Source of the DNA: Escherichia phage ECML-4
DNA: 64,000 nucleotides
Sequence record: JX128257
Reading direction: 5' to 3' (one strand)
Part shown: in pieces, positions 43,600 through 47,332 of the stretch
How positions within the stretch are numbered: the first letter of the stretch is position 1
How the letters are laid out: the number at the start of each line of letters is the position of its first letter
Made by a program: the position numbers and the translations under genes
The notes under the pieces: model-generated
What the model was told of the DNA's origin: nothing
The model's database searches: none
Seen by the model: only the letters and a program-made list of their open reading frames with translations

Positions 43600-43675
43600 T
43601 GGTTGCTTCAACTGGATTCGAACCAGTGACCTCTCCCTTATCAGGGGAACGCTCTACCTACTGAGCTATGAAGCA
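43600..43675 (-). tRNA. tRNA-Ile (anticodon GAT)
   Basis: hand-folded cloverleaf: acceptor TGCTTCA/TGAAGCA, D stem GCTC/GAGC, anticodon stem TTCCC/GGGAG with loop CTGATAA, T arm ACTGG-TTCGAAT-CCAGT, CCA encoded. Confidence 0.8.
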
Positions 43676-43678
43676 ATT

Positions 43679-43767
43679 TGGCGGAAGGTGAAGGATTCGA
43701 ACCTTCGGGGGCTAAAAGCCCCACTCGATTAGCAGTCGAGTCCCTTAAACCTCTCGGGCAACCTTCC
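43679..43767 (-). tRNA. tRNA-Ser (anticodon GCT), type II
   Basis: acceptor GGAAGGT/ACCTTCC, anticodon stem CTCGA/TCGAG with loop CTGCTAA, long variable arm, T arm GAAGG-TTCGAAT-CCTTC, CCA encoded. Confidence 0.8.
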
Positions 43768-44052
43768 GTATACTGCGCCTCGGTCAAGAATTTTCCAAGC
43801 CATGACCTAAATCTGGGTTCTTGACCTGACCGAGCGTAATTTGGACGGGCTTCACACCCGATTGTGCATTTGATCTGCCGTAGCCCAACTCCCCGCGCCG
43901 AAGCGCCGATTGGTTAACTGGCACCAGTGCCTTCTGGTTCGATCTCCTGTAACTTTACAGGCTTTGCGCCCGACCATTTCTGGAAGTTGAGGCATCGTTC
44001 CCGATGTGGAGTCCCCTCATTTTACACAGCTGGCTGCAACGCTTACTGTGTT

Positions 44053-44136
44053 TGGTGTGAGTGGATGGATTCGAACCACCGCGCTGTTACGGGGAGATTT
44101 ACAGTCTCCTGCATTCGACCGCTCTGCCACACTCAC
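44053..44136 (-). tRNA. tRNA-Tyr (anticodon GTA), type II
   Basis: acceptor GTGAGTG/CACTCAC, anticodon stem GGAGA/TCTCC with loop CTGTAAA, 12-nt variable region, T arm GGTGG-TTCGAAT-CCATC, CCA encoded. Confidence 0.75.
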
Positions 44137-44392
44137 ATTTGGTCTACCACCACGTGCTGGGCCACGCTCGAGGACATCGGCCATCCTTCCTCAGCTAATC
44201 CACGCGGCGGTAGATTTAGATCAGAGTGTACGGTGTAGCATTCCGCAGGGGTGCACCTACTGTAGCCCTTTCACTCTGAAATTGTATGAAGTAGGTCTCA
44301 CTCCCCTGGGTATCTGTATCCTGCAGCCTTACATTGGCAGCTATCGCGCGATTCGCACTTCCGAAGGCGCTTCGAGATACTCTACTTCAATT

Positions 44393-44468
44393 TGGCGACG
44401 ATGGCAGGACTTGAACCTGCGACATATGGATTAACAGTCCACCGTTCTACCGACTGAACTACATCGTC
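44393..44468 (-). tRNA. tRNA-Asn (anticodon GTT)
   Basis: acceptor GACGATG/CATCGTC, D stem GTTC/GAAC, anticodon stem GTGGA/TCCAT with loop CTGTTAA, T arm GCAGG-TTCAAGT-CCTGC, CCA encoded. Confidence 0.8.
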
Positions 44469-44469
44469 A

Positions 44470-44670
44470 TTATCCGTGCTTGTTTGCTTCAATTGCCCTT
44501 AATTGAGCATCAGCGTCAGCTTTGGTGTCATGTGTCCCAAGAACCTTCGTCTTGGTGTGGTCAAGGACAACCCACTTGTCGCCTCGCTTTTCAACAAACT
44601 CAACAATCTCTTTGTTGTCGGTAGCGAGGCCATCCCACTCAGCAAGAAACTCACCGAACGTTTTCATCAT
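44470..44670 (-). CDS. small hypothetical protein embedded in tRNA cluster (66 aa)
   Basis: track ORF begins with TTG; more likely start is the ATG-ATG pair at 44670 preceded by GGTGAG. Confidence 0.35.
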   Translation of the reverse strand: MMKTFGEFLAEWDGLATDNKEIVEFVEKRGDKWVVLDHTKTKVLGTHDTKADADAQLRAIEANKHG

Positions 44671-44787
44671 ACTCACCAATTGTTTATTGAACAACTGGTT
44701 TATTTAGGTGCTCCCGAGGCGGTATTTTAATCCCGCGATCCCATCTCGCCTGCCGTAGACCAGAGCATGCTGACAGTCCAACATATT

Positions 44788-44863
44788 TGGTGACCCTGGC
44801 TGGACTTGAACCAGCGACCAATCGATTATGAGTCGACTGCTCTAACCACTGAGCTACGGGGCC
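44788..44863 (-). tRNA. tRNA-Met (anticodon CAT)
   Basis: acceptor GGCCCCG/CAGGGTC (one C-A mismatch), D stem GCTC/GAGC, anticodon stem GTCGA/TCGAT with loop CTCATAA, T arm GCTGG-TTCAAGT-CCAGC, CCA encoded. Confidence 0.7.
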
Positions 44864-44971
44864 AAAATTGGCGGGGTCTGAGGCTTTTCACCTCACCTGC
44901 TGGATTGGCCTCCAGCTGTTCTCTCTGGGGACTCGCTGTCCGGACAGCTATCCCTTAAACTATCGCCCCTT

Positions 44972-45086
44972 AATTCATATTGCTGTGGGTAATACCAAAG
45001 CGGAGGTTTGGAATCTCTCGCCCTATAGCGACCTTTAAACCGTTTGATCAGTCCGATCCAAAGGACTACCCACAGCAATATGAATT
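44972..45086. repeat. 20-bp perfect inverted repeat flanking a 75-nt loop
   Basis: AATTCATATTGCTGTGGGTA (44972-44991) and its exact reverse complement (45067-45086); a 14-bp palindrome GCTGTCCGGACAGC lies just upstream (44935-44948). Confidence 0.8.
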
Positions 45087-45293
45087 TGTTGTGTCCAATC
45101 AAGGACTGTCAACCTTTTATCCCGTTTGTGCATGATCAGTTCATGCAGGCCTCTTTGTGCGCCTCACGGCAACGCGCTTCTGTAGGTCATTGACTTGCAC
45201 CGTAGTCTCACCACAGGCGTTTATTTTTCCAGGGCTTTCCACTTACAAGTCTTAACCAGATCGGGATACGGGCTTGTAAGATCAGATTGGACA

Positions 45294-45371
45294 CAACTTT
45301 GATGGCTCTAGGACTAAAGATCCCGCGTCACCCATAGACTTGGTTTATAAAATCTAGAGCCATCAAAGTTG
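45294..45371. repeat. 18-bp perfect inverted repeat flanking a 42-nt loop
   Basis: CAACTTTGATGGCTCTAG (45294-45311) and CTAGAGCCATCAAAGTTG (45354-45371); an 8-bp hairpin CTTACAAG/CTTGTAAG lies upstream (45242-45280). Confidence 0.8.
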
Positions 45372-45750
45372 CAACCAATGTCGCAACTCGCACTTCAGCG
45401 TCTTCGTCTCGCTTCAGCACTTGTCCTCTACGCTCGGACCAAACGAGGCTGGCCGACAGAAACATGACACCACTCATCACTAGAGCGAGGATGTGGTTGA
45501 TAGCCACGATGCTATATCTCTGTCGCAGAGTGATCACACTTGTCAGGATGATCACTGTTTTGCGAACTTGAAAATACTGCGCCTGTCTCGGGTTTCCCCT
45601 TAGTTCGGCCTCTCATTGTTCGTCTAGTCAGGGAGCTACCCTTGATGACCAGCTTATTTTGAGATCTTCGCCAGCACCCACTAGTGTCTAGAATATGTAG
45701 GTGTCGAGGTCTGCAAGGCATTGCCCTATTTCATACAACGCTCTCTCAAG

Positions 45751-45888
45751 TACGCAAATCGAAGTTCTCTGGGCTTAACAGGTTCGACCCAACATGTTGT
45801 ATATCGCCTAACTTGCTCATGGGACGGACACATCTGTGTACAGACCTTGAGGGTTAAAAGATATACCCAGAGAACTTCGATTTGCGTA
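45751..45888. repeat. 23-bp perfect inverted repeat flanking a 92-nt loop
   Basis: TACGCAAATCGAAGTTCTCTGGG (45751-45773) and CCCAGAGAACTTCGATTTGCGTA (45866-45888); loop contains a T-loop-like GGTTCGACC. Confidence 0.8.
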
Positions 45889-46477
45889 GCCCTTCACTTG
45901 CCAAAGATCAGGGCTAATAACAAGACTTCGCTCACATCTTTGAGGGCACTCAGTGTACAACAGGCTCCGATATTTCATAGGGCATTACTGCCTCGGATTT
46001 AAGTTGCCTTTCTCCTGAAACTCCATGCAGTCTCGCGTCTGACGCGGAATGCCCTCAAAGATGTGGAGCCGTTTTAGGGAGTCGAACCCAAATGCTTGGC
46101 CAGCGCTGACCTTACATCCCATCTGACTTAGGCAACCCACCTCTGCTTACTCAGGAGCTTATCCCCTTTGGACAGTCAGATATAACGGCTTTGGGATTGG
46201 AGGAAGGACTCGAACCTTCTCATGTACGCTCCTGATTTCTCAGAAGTAGCCTGCTCCCATCGACCTATTAAGTACACGCTCCGCTCATTGTTCGGCGGGA
46301 GCTTATTAATCACACCCTCCCGCCTATTGTTAGTGCGCCGAATTTTGTTATGAGGAATCGGAAGACCTCACTGGTGTATGGCTATTAAGCTACTGCCAGG
46401 AACGTGTTATCATTAGCGATTATTTTTGTGGTCAGTTTCTAAAAACCCGCAAAGTCACGCACAACGAAAACGAAAAC

Positions 46478-46542
46478 CTGTTTGAGTCCTAAACCTACCT
46501 GTCTTGGTCTCACATCGCTATGAGTGGCCAGGACTCAAACAG
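46478..46542. repeat. 13-bp perfect inverted repeat flanking a 39-nt loop
   Basis: CTGTTTGAGTCCT (46478-46490) and AGGACTCAAACAG (46530-46542). Confidence 0.7.
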
Positions 46543-46617
46543 CTTGCCGTTCAGTGAGTTAACTATACTTTGTAACCCGTTATTGATAAAACCTTTTATT
46601 TTTGTTGACGAGGGTGT

Positions 46618-46718
46618 GGAATCGAACCACACTTCTGAGCGCTGCCCCGTGTCACCAATGCACCACCTCACCATCGATTTGCCGGAACTTACGCATCCGG
46701 CCTCGTCCTGTCGGTGTT
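46618..46718 (-). ncRNA. tRNA-like element (perfect 7-bp acceptor stem plus canonical T-arm, non-canonical 101-nt body)
   Basis: GACGAGG (46618-46624) pairs perfectly with CCTCGTC (46712-46718); T-arm-like GTGTGG-AATCGAA-CCACAC at 46625-46643; no standard anticodon arm could be folded. Confidence 0.3.
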
Positions 46719-47332
46719 CTTCTGAATCCGGGAAGATCAGCAGGAACTATGAATCAAGTTAATTCAACCAACAGGAATCCTCGTGTTGCCCTTTGACGCA
46801 ACATTATGAACCCTCTATGAAGACTCATAATGTTGTCGGCGTGATGGAGATTAGCGCCCCCGACCTCCCCTTATATGTTGGTGTCGACTTGCCAACAGGG
46901 TGCTCTCTGATTCTGAGCTAATCACGCTACAACAGGGAGTTTCGTTCTCCGACGGTCAAGTGCGTCCACTGACACCAGCGAGGTGGATATTATGCCTCTA
47001 TTCACACAAGCCCCAGAGACTAGGGGTTCACTGTTTTCGGTTTCAAGCCTACTCACACTGTGCTGTTTCCCTCATGTTTGATACTTTACTGCAAGCCAGC
47101 CAATTTGAAAAATCCTCTCCCCTTTGAATTACACTGCCCACAGCAGTGCGGACGAACCTTCATTCAAAACCGGATGCGCCGAAATGGGCGACTGTGTACC
47201 GGACTGATCAGGTCGACCCAGGAGAGAGCAGGTAATCCCGATCAGGAGGATGAGGAGTAACATCATGTAAAACATAGTGTTCCCTCCCTTCCATGCAACT
47301 AACTTTACCGCATTTATTTATTGAATAAAGCG

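Follow-up and report, generated by a model that had tools for sequence, protein, structure and literature searches.

The 2.4-kb ORF-poor stretch beside the tRNA genes of Escherichia phage ECML-4 (JX128257) is a conserved array of folded non-coding RNAs, one of which, at 46480-46290 on the minus strand, is an unannotated tmRNA-like element that keeps a translatable-looking 10-codon tag frame (ANDNTFLAVA) but has no recognisable tRNA-like half. To examine this region (44864-47332), we analysed a 64,000-nt window of the phage genome, which is that of a Kuttervirus (Vi01-like, about 99% identical to STML-13-1), and compared it with relatives, among which the region is conserved but mosaic across Ackermannviridae. 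A first-pass annotation made from the sequence alone had reported that the stretch lacks a convincing ORF and is packed with long perfect inverted repeats, and this observation holds. Its interpretation is partly supported: a cluster of structured small RNAs next to the tRNAs is what the evidence favours, whereas its alternatives of decayed tRNA genes or an origin, packaging or recombination element are not supported, and it did not see the tmRNA-like element, the most informative part of the region.

Initially, we verified the repeats. A 20-bp perfect repeat lies at 44972/45067 with a 75-nt loop, an 18-bp perfect repeat at 45294/45354 with a 42-nt loop (26 bp at 88% when extended), a 23-bp perfect repeat at 45751/45866 with a 92-nt loop and a 13-bp repeat at 46478/46530 (22 bp at 86%); the palindrome GCTGTCCGGACAGC is at 44935-44948, and T-arm-like GGTTCGAnTCC motifs are on the minus strand at 46631-46615, 46216-46200 and 46089-46077, all as previously noted. 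We found three more that had been missed: a 24-bp (88%) repeat at 45933/46042 and two long-range helices at 45758-45743/45574-45559 and 45297-45285/45100-45088. Chance does not explain the repeats, because perfect inverted repeats of at least 14 bp with loops up to 200 nt number 4 in the region but 0.00 in 300 dinucleotide-preserving shuffles and 0 in each of 22 other tiles of the same size in the window. A homologous protein-coding frame across the region had been named as an outcome that would overturn the RNA reading, and none was found: of 25 ORFs of at least 35 aa, only 47129-47275 (-) is intact, with no stops, at 87-100% amino acid identity in five relatives (L053, L092, L010, L011 and L051; L numbers are our labels for related phage genomes and loci). 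It encodes a hydrophobic 48-aa peptide (MFYMMLLLILLIGITCSLLGRPDQSG...) with a GGAGGG ribosome-binding site and is annotated as SeLz1_58 in SenALZ1. The other ORFs are fragmented or carry stops in other genera, except for a 35-aa plus-strand frame at 45195-45302, inside the domain B2 described below, that stays open in nine of the ten relatives that matched.

Next, we asked whether the stems are maintained by compensatory change in related phages, the comparison that had been proposed as a check. Four hairpins aligned across 12 Ackermannviridae are 97.4% paired, against 28-42% when the partner is slid, and 26 of 75 pairs have double changes; the covariation score is 0.230 against 0.113, with 0 of 500 shuffles as high. 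The arms were picked with motif-anchored patterns and a pairing filter, which inflates the percentage paired, though not the double changes, and because the sequences are related the number of independent compensatory events is smaller than the cell counts suggest. G·U cells number 64 and A·C cells 8, so that the minus strand, which is the strand of the tRNAs, pairs at 97.4% and the plus strand at 90.0%, indicating that the long stems are selected as RNA on the minus strand. Stem lengths are 15-27 bp in all genera, while loops vary from 4 to 96 nt.

The array can be read in the direction of minus-strand transcription. At its upstream end, 46839-46927 (-) holds a possible degenerate tRNA-like element (GCGUGA...UAGCUCAGAAUCAGAGAGCA...UCACGC), a low-confidence assignment read from the sequence, with a fold z-score of only -1.6 and no call by ARAGORN or Rfam. 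tRNA-like 1 (46606-46707, -) has a 7-bp acceptor stem (GACGAGG/CCUCGUC), a canonical T-arm (GUGUGGUUCGAUUCCACAC), an aberrant centre and no CCA, and in some Kutterviruses a different T-arm element replaces it at the same position. A sigma-70-like promoter (46562-46589, -; TTATCA-16-TATAGT) lies about 10 nt upstream of hairpin I6; this is a consensus match only, although the same site reads TTGTCA...TATAGT in Limestone virus and other Kutterviruses. Hairpin I6 (46469-46551, -; 15-22-bp stem, 35-39-nt loop) is immediately 5′ of the tmRNA-like element, with double changes at 3 of 15 pairs, many G·U-compatible changes and z = -5.1 on the minus strand against -3.4 on the plus strand. Downstream of the tmRNA-like element, tRNA-like 2 (46192-46260, -) is a 69-nt element with no D-arm, having an acceptor stem (AUGGGAG/CUCCAAU with a G3·A70 mismatch), a GAAA-capped hairpin, a T-arm, discriminator C and CCA; it is an insertion present in only some genomes and is absent from L006, L017 and L092, where the tmRNA-like element directly abuts tRNA-like 3. 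tRNA-like 3 (46064-46189, -), the most conserved block in the region (92-99% identity even in Taipeivirus), has an acceptor stem (GCCGUU/AACGGC), a long arm (AUAUCUGACU/AGUCAGAU), a 66-nt insert in place of the anticodon arm, the T-loop GGGUUCGACUCCC, discriminator U and an encoded CCA, and by alignment and by eye it shares collinear motifs with the 3′ part of E. coli ssrA.

The remaining modules are long hairpins and domains closed by long-range helices. Hairpin I3 (45933-46065, -; 19-21-bp stem, double changes at 8 of 19 pairs) has a conserved stem but a swappable loop cassette, 95 nt here and a 51-nt T-arm-containing mini-tRNA-like insert in other Kutterviruses. Hairpin I1 (45748-45891, -) has a 23-27-bp stem, a 90-nt loop, double changes at 9 of 21 pairs and z = -8.0. 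Domain B1 (45559-45758, -), about 200 nt, is closed by a 16-bp long-range helix whose 5′ strand overlaps the 3′ arm of I1; the helix is kept in L001 and L015 with a C-G to U-A change, and in L008 the domain is reduced to a 28-nt loop. A 20-bp hairpin rich in G·U pairs at 45454-45525 (-) forms only on the minus-strand RNA (z = -4.0 against -1.8 on the plus strand) and has a compensated variant in L010 and L011. Hairpin I2 (45286-45379, -; 20-26-bp stem, 42-nt loop) has double changes at 6 of 20 pairs and invariant outer U·G and G·U pairs. Domain B2 (45088-45297, -), 210 nt and highly conserved (89% identity to Dickeya Limestone virus; z = -4.5), is closed by the 13-bp helix GUUGUGUCCAAUC/GAUUGGACACAAC, whose 5′ strand overlaps the 3′ arm of I2 and which shows a compensatory U-A to C-G change. 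A second tag-like frame in B2 (AAAAAUAAAC-GCC...) was rejected because, judged by eye, its differences from Limestone virus are all non-synonymous and fit a stem instead. Hairpin I5 (44972-45086, -; 20-22-bp stem, 71-75-nt loop) varies in presence among genomes, and L001 carries a compensated CU/AG to UC/GA change in it. The 3′ block at 44866-44974 (-) contains the palindrome GCUGUCCGGACAGC and two small hairpins, abuts tRNA-Met (44788-44863), is 94% identical to Limestone virus, against 69-83% for the flanking genes, and has z = -3.7 on the minus strand against -1.6 on the plus strand.

To identify the RNAs, we ran the covariance-model scan that had been suggested as a check. Rfam at gathering thresholds over the whole window, and at lax E-values over five sub-regions, returned only the five tRNAs, weak tmRNA-family hits over the tag and spurious miRNA-precursor hits on the long hairpins. 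Further analysis of the tag region revealed a tmRNA-like mRNA-like-domain RNA (MLD), comprising in order a GUUUUCG...GACUUUGCGGG leader, the A-rich AAAAAUAAUC context, the resume codon GCU at 46417-46415, the tag ANDNTFLAVA with no start codon, stops UAA UAG at 46387-46382 inside helix P5, and pseudoknots PKa (46370-46366/46355-46351 and 46361-46358/46341-46338) and PKb (46336-46333/46315-46312 and 46324-46317/46301-46294). The tag region aligns to E. coli ssrA (AAAAAUAGUCGCAAACGAC... against AAAAAUAAUCGCUAAUGAU...) and to three Rfam tmRNA models. We found 73 distinct homologues across phage families, and the same element, unannotated, occurs in Felixounavirus, T1-like siphophages, lambdoid prophages, and P1-like and pHCM2-like phage-plasmids. 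All 20 distinct tag sequences have exactly 10 codons, codons 1-3 and 10 vary only at the third position, and the peptide pattern is A-N-D/E-x-x-[FYVM]-[LM]-x-x-A. P5, PKa and stem 1 of PKb are 94.1% paired, against 34-44% when slid, and 13 of 22 pairs have double changes; stem 2 of PKb was read by eye, and upstream of the tag we found no convincing PK1, only a small candidate hairpin without covariation, so that the pseudoknot arrangement around the tag neither secures nor excludes a tmRNA assignment. In siphophages and Felixounavirus a TTGACA-17-TAnAnT promoter sits directly upstream of the element, and in Felixounavirus the element lies inside the tRNA array.

By other criteria the element falls short of a tmRNA. 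RF04321 scores 20.6 bits against a gathering threshold of 47, RF01850 scores 14.6 against 84 and RF00023 matches only a T-loop, and ARAGORN finds no tmRNA in the window or in 36 related loci. No acceptor stem, T-arm or CCA belongs to the element, no canonical tRNA-like domain is detectable with it in any of the phage groups above, and no G3·U70 was found nearby; tRNA-like 3 has a T-loop and CCA but C3-G70 and U73, so charging by AlaRS is not expected. Alanylation, SmpB binding and tagging of stalled nascent chains were not assayed. A search for a one-piece topology, with a 5′ acceptor strand upstream of the tag pairing with a T-arm-adjacent 3′ strand downstream, gave no fit, because both downstream T-arm elements close on local 5′ strands. 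A permuted reading with I6 as the acceptor stem also failed: a CCA follows the 5′ arm in the window and in one relative but is not conserved, and no T-arm precedes it. Base pairing of the MLD with E. coli ssrA or with tRNA-like 1-3 was no better than shuffled controls in energy or longest complementary run, leaving physical association of two pieces unsupported, and many phages with the MLD, such as L036 and Felixounavirus, have no obvious counterpart of tRNA-like 3. The tRNA-shaped RNAs that flank the MLD, three or four in number, are not decodable tRNAs: ARAGORN does not call tRNA-like 1-3 in the window or in 11 relatives, no relative carries a bona fide tRNA at any of these positions, and the best RF00005 score, an end-to-end alignment of tRNA-like 3, is 12.6 bits against a threshold of 29. 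The near invariance of tRNA-like 3 across genera fits purifying selection rather than decay.

We therefore interpret the region as the non-tRNA part of a minus-strand RNA operon of at least twelve folded RNA modules, running from the promoter near 46.59 kb, with possible read-through from upstream, to the strong terminator at 43378-43356 beyond the tRNAs. Our analysis shows that the long stems are conserved as base-paired RNA on the tRNA strand, that one module derives from tmRNA and keeps the tag frame and two pseudoknots (one helix of which was read by eye) without a tRNA-like domain of its own, that the tRNA-shaped modules are not decodable tRNAs in any relative, and that the region is dispensable in the laboratory and hence accessory, since the published viable mutant selz_497L lacks the equivalent of window ~47292-45176 (PMC9825161); what follows is inference. 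The 19-26-bp near-perfect hairpins span about two helical turns, the length RNase III needs, and we propose that they act as processing and insulating stems which, together with RNase P acting at the tRNA-like elements, would cut the precursor into stable small RNAs, as in rRNA operons and tRNA-punctuated transcripts; no transcript data exist for this region, and cleavage was not examined. The tmRNA-like RNA would be a tag template used in trans-translation, giving rescued nascent chains the phage-specified tag AANDNTFLAVA in place of the host's AANDENYALAA, with the SspB-binding-like N-terminal part kept and the ClpX-binding C-terminal part changed. The acceptor half would be supplied separately, most likely by the adjacent tRNA-like 3, which would make this a tmRNA split into an acceptor RNA and a template RNA. 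We are highly confident in the structured minus-strand RNA array and nearly as confident in the tmRNA ancestry of the tag element, but consider the RNase III processing and split-tmRNA steps less likely than not; taken as a blend of these, the explanation as a whole is somewhat more likely than not.

Comparison with known systems places the element closest to tmRNA (SsrA), in its one-piece (RF00023) and circularly permuted two-piece forms (alpha-, beta- and cyanobacterial types, RF04321). The shared features are the A-rich UAAAU/UAAUC context before a GCN resume codon, a 10-codon tag beginning A-N-D as in enterobacterial ANDENYALAA, a stop codon in a helix equivalent to P5, downstream H-type pseudoknots and, as in the permuted model, an upstream hairpin followed by a UUCG-containing segment. 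The element differs in having only two pseudoknots after the tag and a tag ending in LAVA or LMAA rather than ALAA; moreover, if the acceptor half is tRNA-like 3, the split differs from the known permuted two-piece genes, in which the coding piece carries the 5′ acceptor strand, because here the tRNA-like piece is complete on its own. Stable small RNAs of the T4 tRNA cluster (species 1 and 2, rnaC/rnaD) are also encoded next to and on the same strand as phage tRNAs, presumably released by tRNA-processing enzymes; no T4 sequence was compared, so that this resemblance is one of genomic context only, and the present array is much larger and contains long two-turn hairpins and a tmRNA-derived element, features that to our knowledge are not described for T4. 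Like RNase III processing stems (rRNA operon spacers, phage T7 R1-R5 sites), the near-perfect helices of about 20-26 bp flank or enclose RNA segments in a polycistronic transcript, and at 19-27 bp, kept near-perfect by compensatory changes, the stems have the continuous two-turn helix of an RNase III substrate, but here the conserved part is the stem and the enclosed loops are variable or exchangeable, whereas in rRNA operons the enclosed RNA is the conserved product. In P1-like plasmids and lambdoid prophages the tmRNA-like element sits in arrays with domains resembling STnc100 (RF02076), of the STnc100/PasD family of prophage-encoded sRNAs, closed by a GUUGUG...CACAAC helix and preceded by long hairpins, and the window uses the same grammar of a hairpin followed by a domain closed by a long-range helix (I2+B2, I1+B1); however, no STnc100 match was found in the window at E up to 10, a hit (37.8 bits) occurs only in the P1-like array, and B1 and B2 are unrelated in sequence. 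GOLLD, ROOL and bacterial Y RNA (YrlA) are structured non-coding RNAs found beside tRNA genes in phages, and YrlA combines a long stem with a tRNA-like module, to which the I3 cassette of some Kutterviruses looks similar, but no Rfam match to any of the three was found in the window.

Among the alternatives, the one that survives best, although we consider it unlikely, is that the tmRNA-like RNA is not translated but is a mimic or decoy of the tmRNA mRNA-like region, titrating a factor that binds that region, such as ribosomal protein S1, RNase R or Hfq, or interfering with host trans-translation, with the rest of the array being unrelated small regulatory RNAs. The absence of an attached tRNA-like domain in any phage family favours this view, as does the presence, in lambdoid and P1-like arrays, of neighbouring elements of the STnc100/PasD family of prophage base-pairing sRNAs (bioRxiv 10.64898/2026.05.13.724894). 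Yet a decoy needs no reading frame, and all 20 variants keep exactly 10 codons, a stop codon in P5 and third-position-only variation in codons 1-3 and 10, as well as the upstream resume-codon context typical of working tmRNAs.

It is very unlikely that the repeats are miniature inverted-repeat mobile elements or hairpin cassettes whose perfection reflects recent insertion into the tRNA region. The mosaic breakpoints at module borders, the variable presence of tRNA-like 2 and I5, the exchanged I3 loop and the homing endonuclease genes inserted here in some relatives would fit, but each repeat is single-copy in the window and unrelated to the others, the segment 44864-46290 has no match in 5,426 E. 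coli genomes, and the stems sit at syntenic positions in different genera with many compensatory and G·U-biased changes, which recent insertions would not show. A graveyard of decayed tRNA and tmRNA genes is less likely still: T-arm elements with aberrant centres, a tmRNA fragment without its acceptor half and laboratory dispensability would agree with it, but blocks of the region are more conserved than the neighbouring protein genes (89-99% against 69-83%), compensatory changes maintain the helices, the tag frame shows purifying selection, and the MLD is maintained in at least five unrelated phage lineages, each with its own promoter, the opposite of the neutral substitution and disruptive indels that decay would leave. 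Least likely, a DNA-level role as cruciforms or protein-binding symmetry elements of a replication origin, packaging site or recombination hotspot, for which the long palindromic arms and ORF-poor setting are typical, is argued against by the strand-asymmetric pairing, which DNA function does not predict, by the absence of a GC-skew switch across the region and by the viable, genetically stable engineered mutant that lacks about 2.25 kb of it, including I6, I3, I1 and I2 (PMC9825161), whose normal replication and packaging already argues against an essential role; several deposited genomes open in this region, but the start is arbitrary and the repeats annotated there, considered as possible genome termini or direct terminal repeats, are only 21 bp. 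An apparent T5-like phage sharing a module turned out to be a genome-reduced Kuttervirus mutant.

A bolder possibility, which we regard as doubtful, is that enterobacterial phages of at least five unrelated lineages (Kuttervirus/Taipeivirus, Felixounavirus, T1-like siphophages, lambdoid prophages, and P1-like and pHCM2-like phage-plasmids) carry a split tmRNA, in which a stand-alone tag-template RNA works with a separately encoded tRNA-shaped acceptor RNA or with the host's tRNA-like domain. Ribosome rescue during infection would then attach a phage-specified tag ending in ...LAVA or ...LMAA that keeps the SspB-binding part of the host tag but changes the ClpX-recognition end, and the long two-turn hairpins would be the processing signals that release these RNAs.

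The element is not rare. A probe spanning it matches 692 of 5,426 complete E. coli genomes and over a thousand plasmid records, although the P1-like plasmid hits cover only its 5′ part, and it is also found in widely used therapeutic and typing phages (Kuttervirus, Felixounavirus). It is annotated in none of the records examined, and literature searches on phage tmRNA-like RNAs, Kuttervirus non-coding RNAs and P1 found no description of it, although the literature covered was incomplete and a prior description elsewhere cannot be excluded. Because a viable deletion mutant already exists, the function is open to direct testing. All known tmRNAs, whether one-piece or two-piece, unite a tRNA-like domain and a tag template in one particle; a tag template that persists under purifying selection without a recognisable tRNA-like half may work by a new route for getting a template into a stalled ribosome, or it may represent a new way for viruses to manipulate ribosome rescue and tag-directed proteolysis. 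The surrounding array also shows that phage tRNA regions can hide kilobases of selected RNA structure, which gene callers either skip or fill with spurious ORFs.

To place the region in context, we compared the window with related phage genomes. The 3.4 kb around the finding is 99% identical to Salmonella phage STML-13-1 and 92-98% identical to many other Vi01-like phages (Kuttervirus, Ackermannviridae), and recognizable but diverged copies occur in Taipeivirus (Klebsiella), Limestonevirus (Dickeya) and Miltonvirus (Serratia). Five tRNA genes (Ile, Ser, Tyr, Asn and Met) lie on the minus strand at 43600-44863, both flanking protein genes are also on the minus strand, and GC skew is uniformly negative across the region. 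The tRNA cluster also holds a 74-aa gene of unknown function between tRNA-Asn and tRNA-Met (44470-44694, minus strand); the DNA is conserved in Limestone virus, where the sequence encodes a similar protein upstream of tRNA-Met. In two Ackermannviridae contigs (L043, 4380-4468, and L051, 6757-6845), ARAGORN reports a tRNA with an undeterminable two-base anticodon ('ag') next to tRNA-Ser, another non-canonical tRNA-like gene in these clusters.

The first-pass annotation had described this region as ORF-poor and packed with long perfect inverted repeats, and this observation held: every inverted repeat that it listed is present at the stated coordinates, as are the 14-bp palindrome and three GGTTCGAnTCC T-arm motifs. 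Perfect inverted repeats of at least 14 bp with loops up to 200 nt number four in the region, compared with zero in 300 dinucleotide-preserving shuffles and zero in 22 other equal-sized tiles of the window, and further long helices exist that had been missed. A convincingly homologous protein-coding frame across the region had been named in advance as an outcome that would count against the annotation; the region is almost ORF-free. Among 25 ORFs of at least 35 aa, only 47129-47275 (minus strand) is intact and conserved in five relatives; it encodes a 48-aa hydrophobic peptide with a good ribosome-binding site, whereas the others break up or acquire stops in other genera. The exception is a 35-aa plus-strand frame at 45195-45302, which stays open in nine of the ten relatives that matched (with a truncated alignment in the relative L003). 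This frame lies inside the highly conserved RNA domain B2 and may therefore be a by-product, but a small antisense protein is not excluded.

Compensatory changes in related phages had been proposed beforehand as a test of whether the stems matter. We extracted the arms of four hairpins (I6, I3, I1 and I2) from 12 Ackermannviridae genomes and counted pairs, which revealed that 97.4% of cells pair, compared with 28-42% when the partner is slid by 1-3 columns. In total, 26 of 75 pairs have changes on both sides, and the covariation score is 0.230, compared with 0.113 in shuffles, with 0 of 500 as high. The arms were found with motif-anchored patterns and a pairing filter, which raises the percentage paired but does not affect the double changes; however, the sequences are related, so independent events are fewer than cells. 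The strand signal is clear, as 64 cells are G·U when read on the minus strand and only 8 are A·C, so that pairing is 97.4% on the minus strand and 90.0% on the plus strand, and one 20-bp hairpin (45525-45454) forms only through G·U pairs. The stems are thus selected as RNA on the tRNA strand. Stem length is held at about 19-27 bp in all genera, while loop length and sequence drift or are replaced outright. The stem of I3 (45933-46065) is conserved, but its loop is exchanged like a cassette among the window and its homologues in the relatives L010, L017, L018, L006, L053, L015, L008 and L092: it encloses 95 nt here, a 51-nt T-arm-containing mini-tRNA-like insert in other Kutterviruses and only 4 nt in one relative. 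Some versions carry a canonical T-arm directly against the 3′ arm, forming a mini tRNA-like RNA with a 19-bp 'acceptor' stem.

On the minus strand, a sigma-70-like promoter (46589-46562), conserved as TTGTCA...TATAGT in other genera, precedes hairpin I6, and a strong intrinsic terminator follows the tRNAs at 43378-43356. Between promoter and terminator the array has a repeated grammar, in which a long hairpin is followed by a 200-nt domain closed by a long-range helix, the 5′ strand of which overlaps the 3′ arm of the hairpin, as in I1 with B1 (45758-45559) and I2 with B2 (45297-45088). The closing helices carry compensatory changes in Taipeivirus and Limestonevirus. The region is mosaic among relatives, with breakpoints at module borders, and HNH homing endonuclease genes are inserted within it in several relatives (Kutterviruses SS3, SS9, SeKF_64, Mutine and FrontPhageNews). 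In one prophage-like contig (L045), the insertion lies immediately after the tmRNA-like pseudoknot PKb. Several blocks are more conserved than the neighbouring protein genes, which are 69-83% identical: tRNA-like 3 is 92-99% identical, B2 is 89% identical to Limestone virus and the 3′ block 44866-44974 is 94% identical to Limestone virus.

A 140-nt stretch (46471-46332, minus strand) is the only part of the region shared with unrelated phages. Read on the minus strand it is ...CACAAAAAUAAUC GCU AAU GAU AAC ACG UUC CUG GCA GUA GCU UAA UAG, which encodes ANDNTFLAVA, compared with ANDENYALAA in E. coli ssrA. The two align over this stretch, and three Rfam tmRNA models hit it weakly. An exact-pattern scan of IMG/VR returned 74 loci, and further searches placed the element in Felixounavirus, inside the tRNA array and behind its own TTGACA-17-TATAGT promoter; in T1-like Klebsiella siphophages, again behind a consensus promoter and upstream of tRNAs; in a lambdoid prophage of E. 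coli 55989, between the antiterminator Q gene and the holin gene; in pHCM2-like and P1-like phage-plasmids; and in 692 of 5,426 complete E. coli genomes. It was annotated in none of the records that we examined. In the 55989 prophage (L082, 3330-3880), the element (tag ANDDVVLMAA) lies in the late-operon leader after a tR′-like terminator, flanked by the same hairpin type and followed by a tRNA-like with a D-arm and a 70-nt insert. In the P1-like plasmid pMS6198C (L098, 2000-3520), it (tag ANDDLMMVAA) lies in a 1.5-kb unannotated RNA array between the dam-type methyltransferase gene and the next gene, together with tRNA-Asn, tRNA-Thr and three or four repeats of a long CACAAC...GUUGUG hairpin plus an STnc100-like domain.

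Twenty distinct tag sequences all have exactly ten codons, and codons 1-3 and 10 vary only at the third position. The peptides fit A-N-D/E-x-x-[FYVM]-[LM]-x-x-A, ending in LAVA, LMAA or VAA, which is the signature of selection on a translated frame. To examine the structure that follows, we tested helix P5 (enclosing the stop codon), an H-type pseudoknot PKa and stem 1 of a second pseudoknot PKb on 26 diverse sequences. This structure is 94.1% paired, compared with 34-44% when slid; 13 of 22 pairs have double changes, and the covariation score is 0.309 against 0.135, with 0 of 500 shuffles as high. What is missing is the tRNA-like domain: ARAGORN finds no tmRNA in the window or in 36 related loci, and no 5′ acceptor strand upstream of the tag pairs with a T-arm-adjacent strand downstream. 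The predicted transcription starts in siphophages and Felixounavirus lie only about 50 nt before the resume codon. The element is therefore tmRNA-derived, but it lacks a defining feature of tmRNA.

In the window the element is followed by two tRNA-shaped RNAs. tRNA-like 2 (46260-46192) is a 69-nt form with no D-arm, ending C-CCA, and is an insertion absent from several relatives. tRNA-like 3 (46189-46064) has a 6-bp acceptor stem, a long arm, a 66-nt insert in place of the anticodon arm, a T-loop and an encoded U-CCA end, and is almost invariant from Kuttervirus to Taipeivirus. In three relatives (L006, L017 and L092), tRNA-like 3 directly abuts the tmRNA-like element. It shares a collinear series of motifs with the 3′ part of E. 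coli ssrA (CUAAG, GGAUGUARG, GGGUUCRACUCCC and GCUCCA), in part recognized by eye, and in the lambdoid prophage a tRNA-like element of analogous design downstream of the tag is hit by the Rfam tmRNA model at E = 5e-6, 20 bits. This makes tRNA-like 3 the best candidate for a separate acceptor half; however, it has C3-G70 rather than G3·U70, and we found no complementarity between the two RNAs, or with host ssrA, above shuffled controls. A possible 10-bp intermolecular helix joins the leader of the tmRNA-like RNA (46457-46448, minus strand; UGACUUUGCG) to tRNA-like 3 (46116-46107, minus strand; UGUAAGGUCA) at positions reminiscent of the two strands of tmRNA helix P2a; it is not above shuffled controls, but Taipeivirus substitutions keep it paired through wobble. 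No relative has a genuine tRNA at any of these positions, so these are not recently decayed tRNA genes.

A deposited genome-reduced Kuttervirus mutant, selz_497L, is deleted for almost exactly this region and is viable and stable, making it a ready-made tool for testing function (records L100, MZ375358, and L101, MH709121, 760-3011; PMC9825161). It lacks 2,250 bp equivalent to window ~47292-45176, which removes I6, the tmRNA-like element, the tRNA-likes, I3, I1, B1, I2 and most of B2, and its burst size is 194, compared with 622 for wild type, with all its deletions combined. Among alternative explanations, a decoy function for the tmRNA-like RNA remains possible, but it does not explain the conserved reading frame. 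MITE-like elements fit the mosaicism, but they fit neither the single-copy, syntenic, covarying, G·U-biased stems nor the absence of any copy in 5,426 E. coli genomes. A DNA-level origin or packaging role fits neither the strand asymmetry nor the viable, stable deletion mutant. The interpretation in the first-pass annotation was partly supported: its reading of structured small RNAs is right, whereas its other two candidates, decayed tRNA genes and an origin, packaging or recombination element, are not supported.

The analysis shows a conserved array of RNA structures on the tRNA strand, a tmRNA-derived tag frame under coding-type selection with covariation in PKa and in stem 1 of PKb, strong conservation of non-decoding tRNA-shaped RNAs and dispensability of the region in the laboratory. 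Beyond these findings, we infer that the array is transcribed as one or two precursors and that cleavage of the two-turn hairpins by RNase III and of the tRNA-like elements by RNase P would release stable RNAs. We further infer that the tag template is used in trans-translation, with the acceptor function supplied by tRNA-like 3 or by the host, so that rescued chains would receive a phage-specific tag that keeps the AAND...[FY] part and alters the C-terminal ClpX determinant. By context the array resembles the stable RNAs of the T4 tRNA cluster, a resemblance that we did not test. In lambdoid and P1-like arrays the neighbours of the element belong to the STnc100/PasD family of prophage sRNAs (bioRxiv 10.64898/2026.05.13.724894, which does not mention tmRNA), whereas no STnc100, YrlA, GOLLD or ROOL match occurs in the window. 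We found no description of the element in the literature that could be searched, which is incomplete. The closest family is tmRNA, which the element matches in the tag and P5, but not in the tRNA-like domain; of the pseudoknots around the tag, PKa and stem 1 of PKb have covariation support, whereas no convincing PK1 was found upstream; if it is two-piece, it is split differently from the known permuted genes. The repeats are highly non-random, and the region contains a widespread, unannotated variant of tmRNA.
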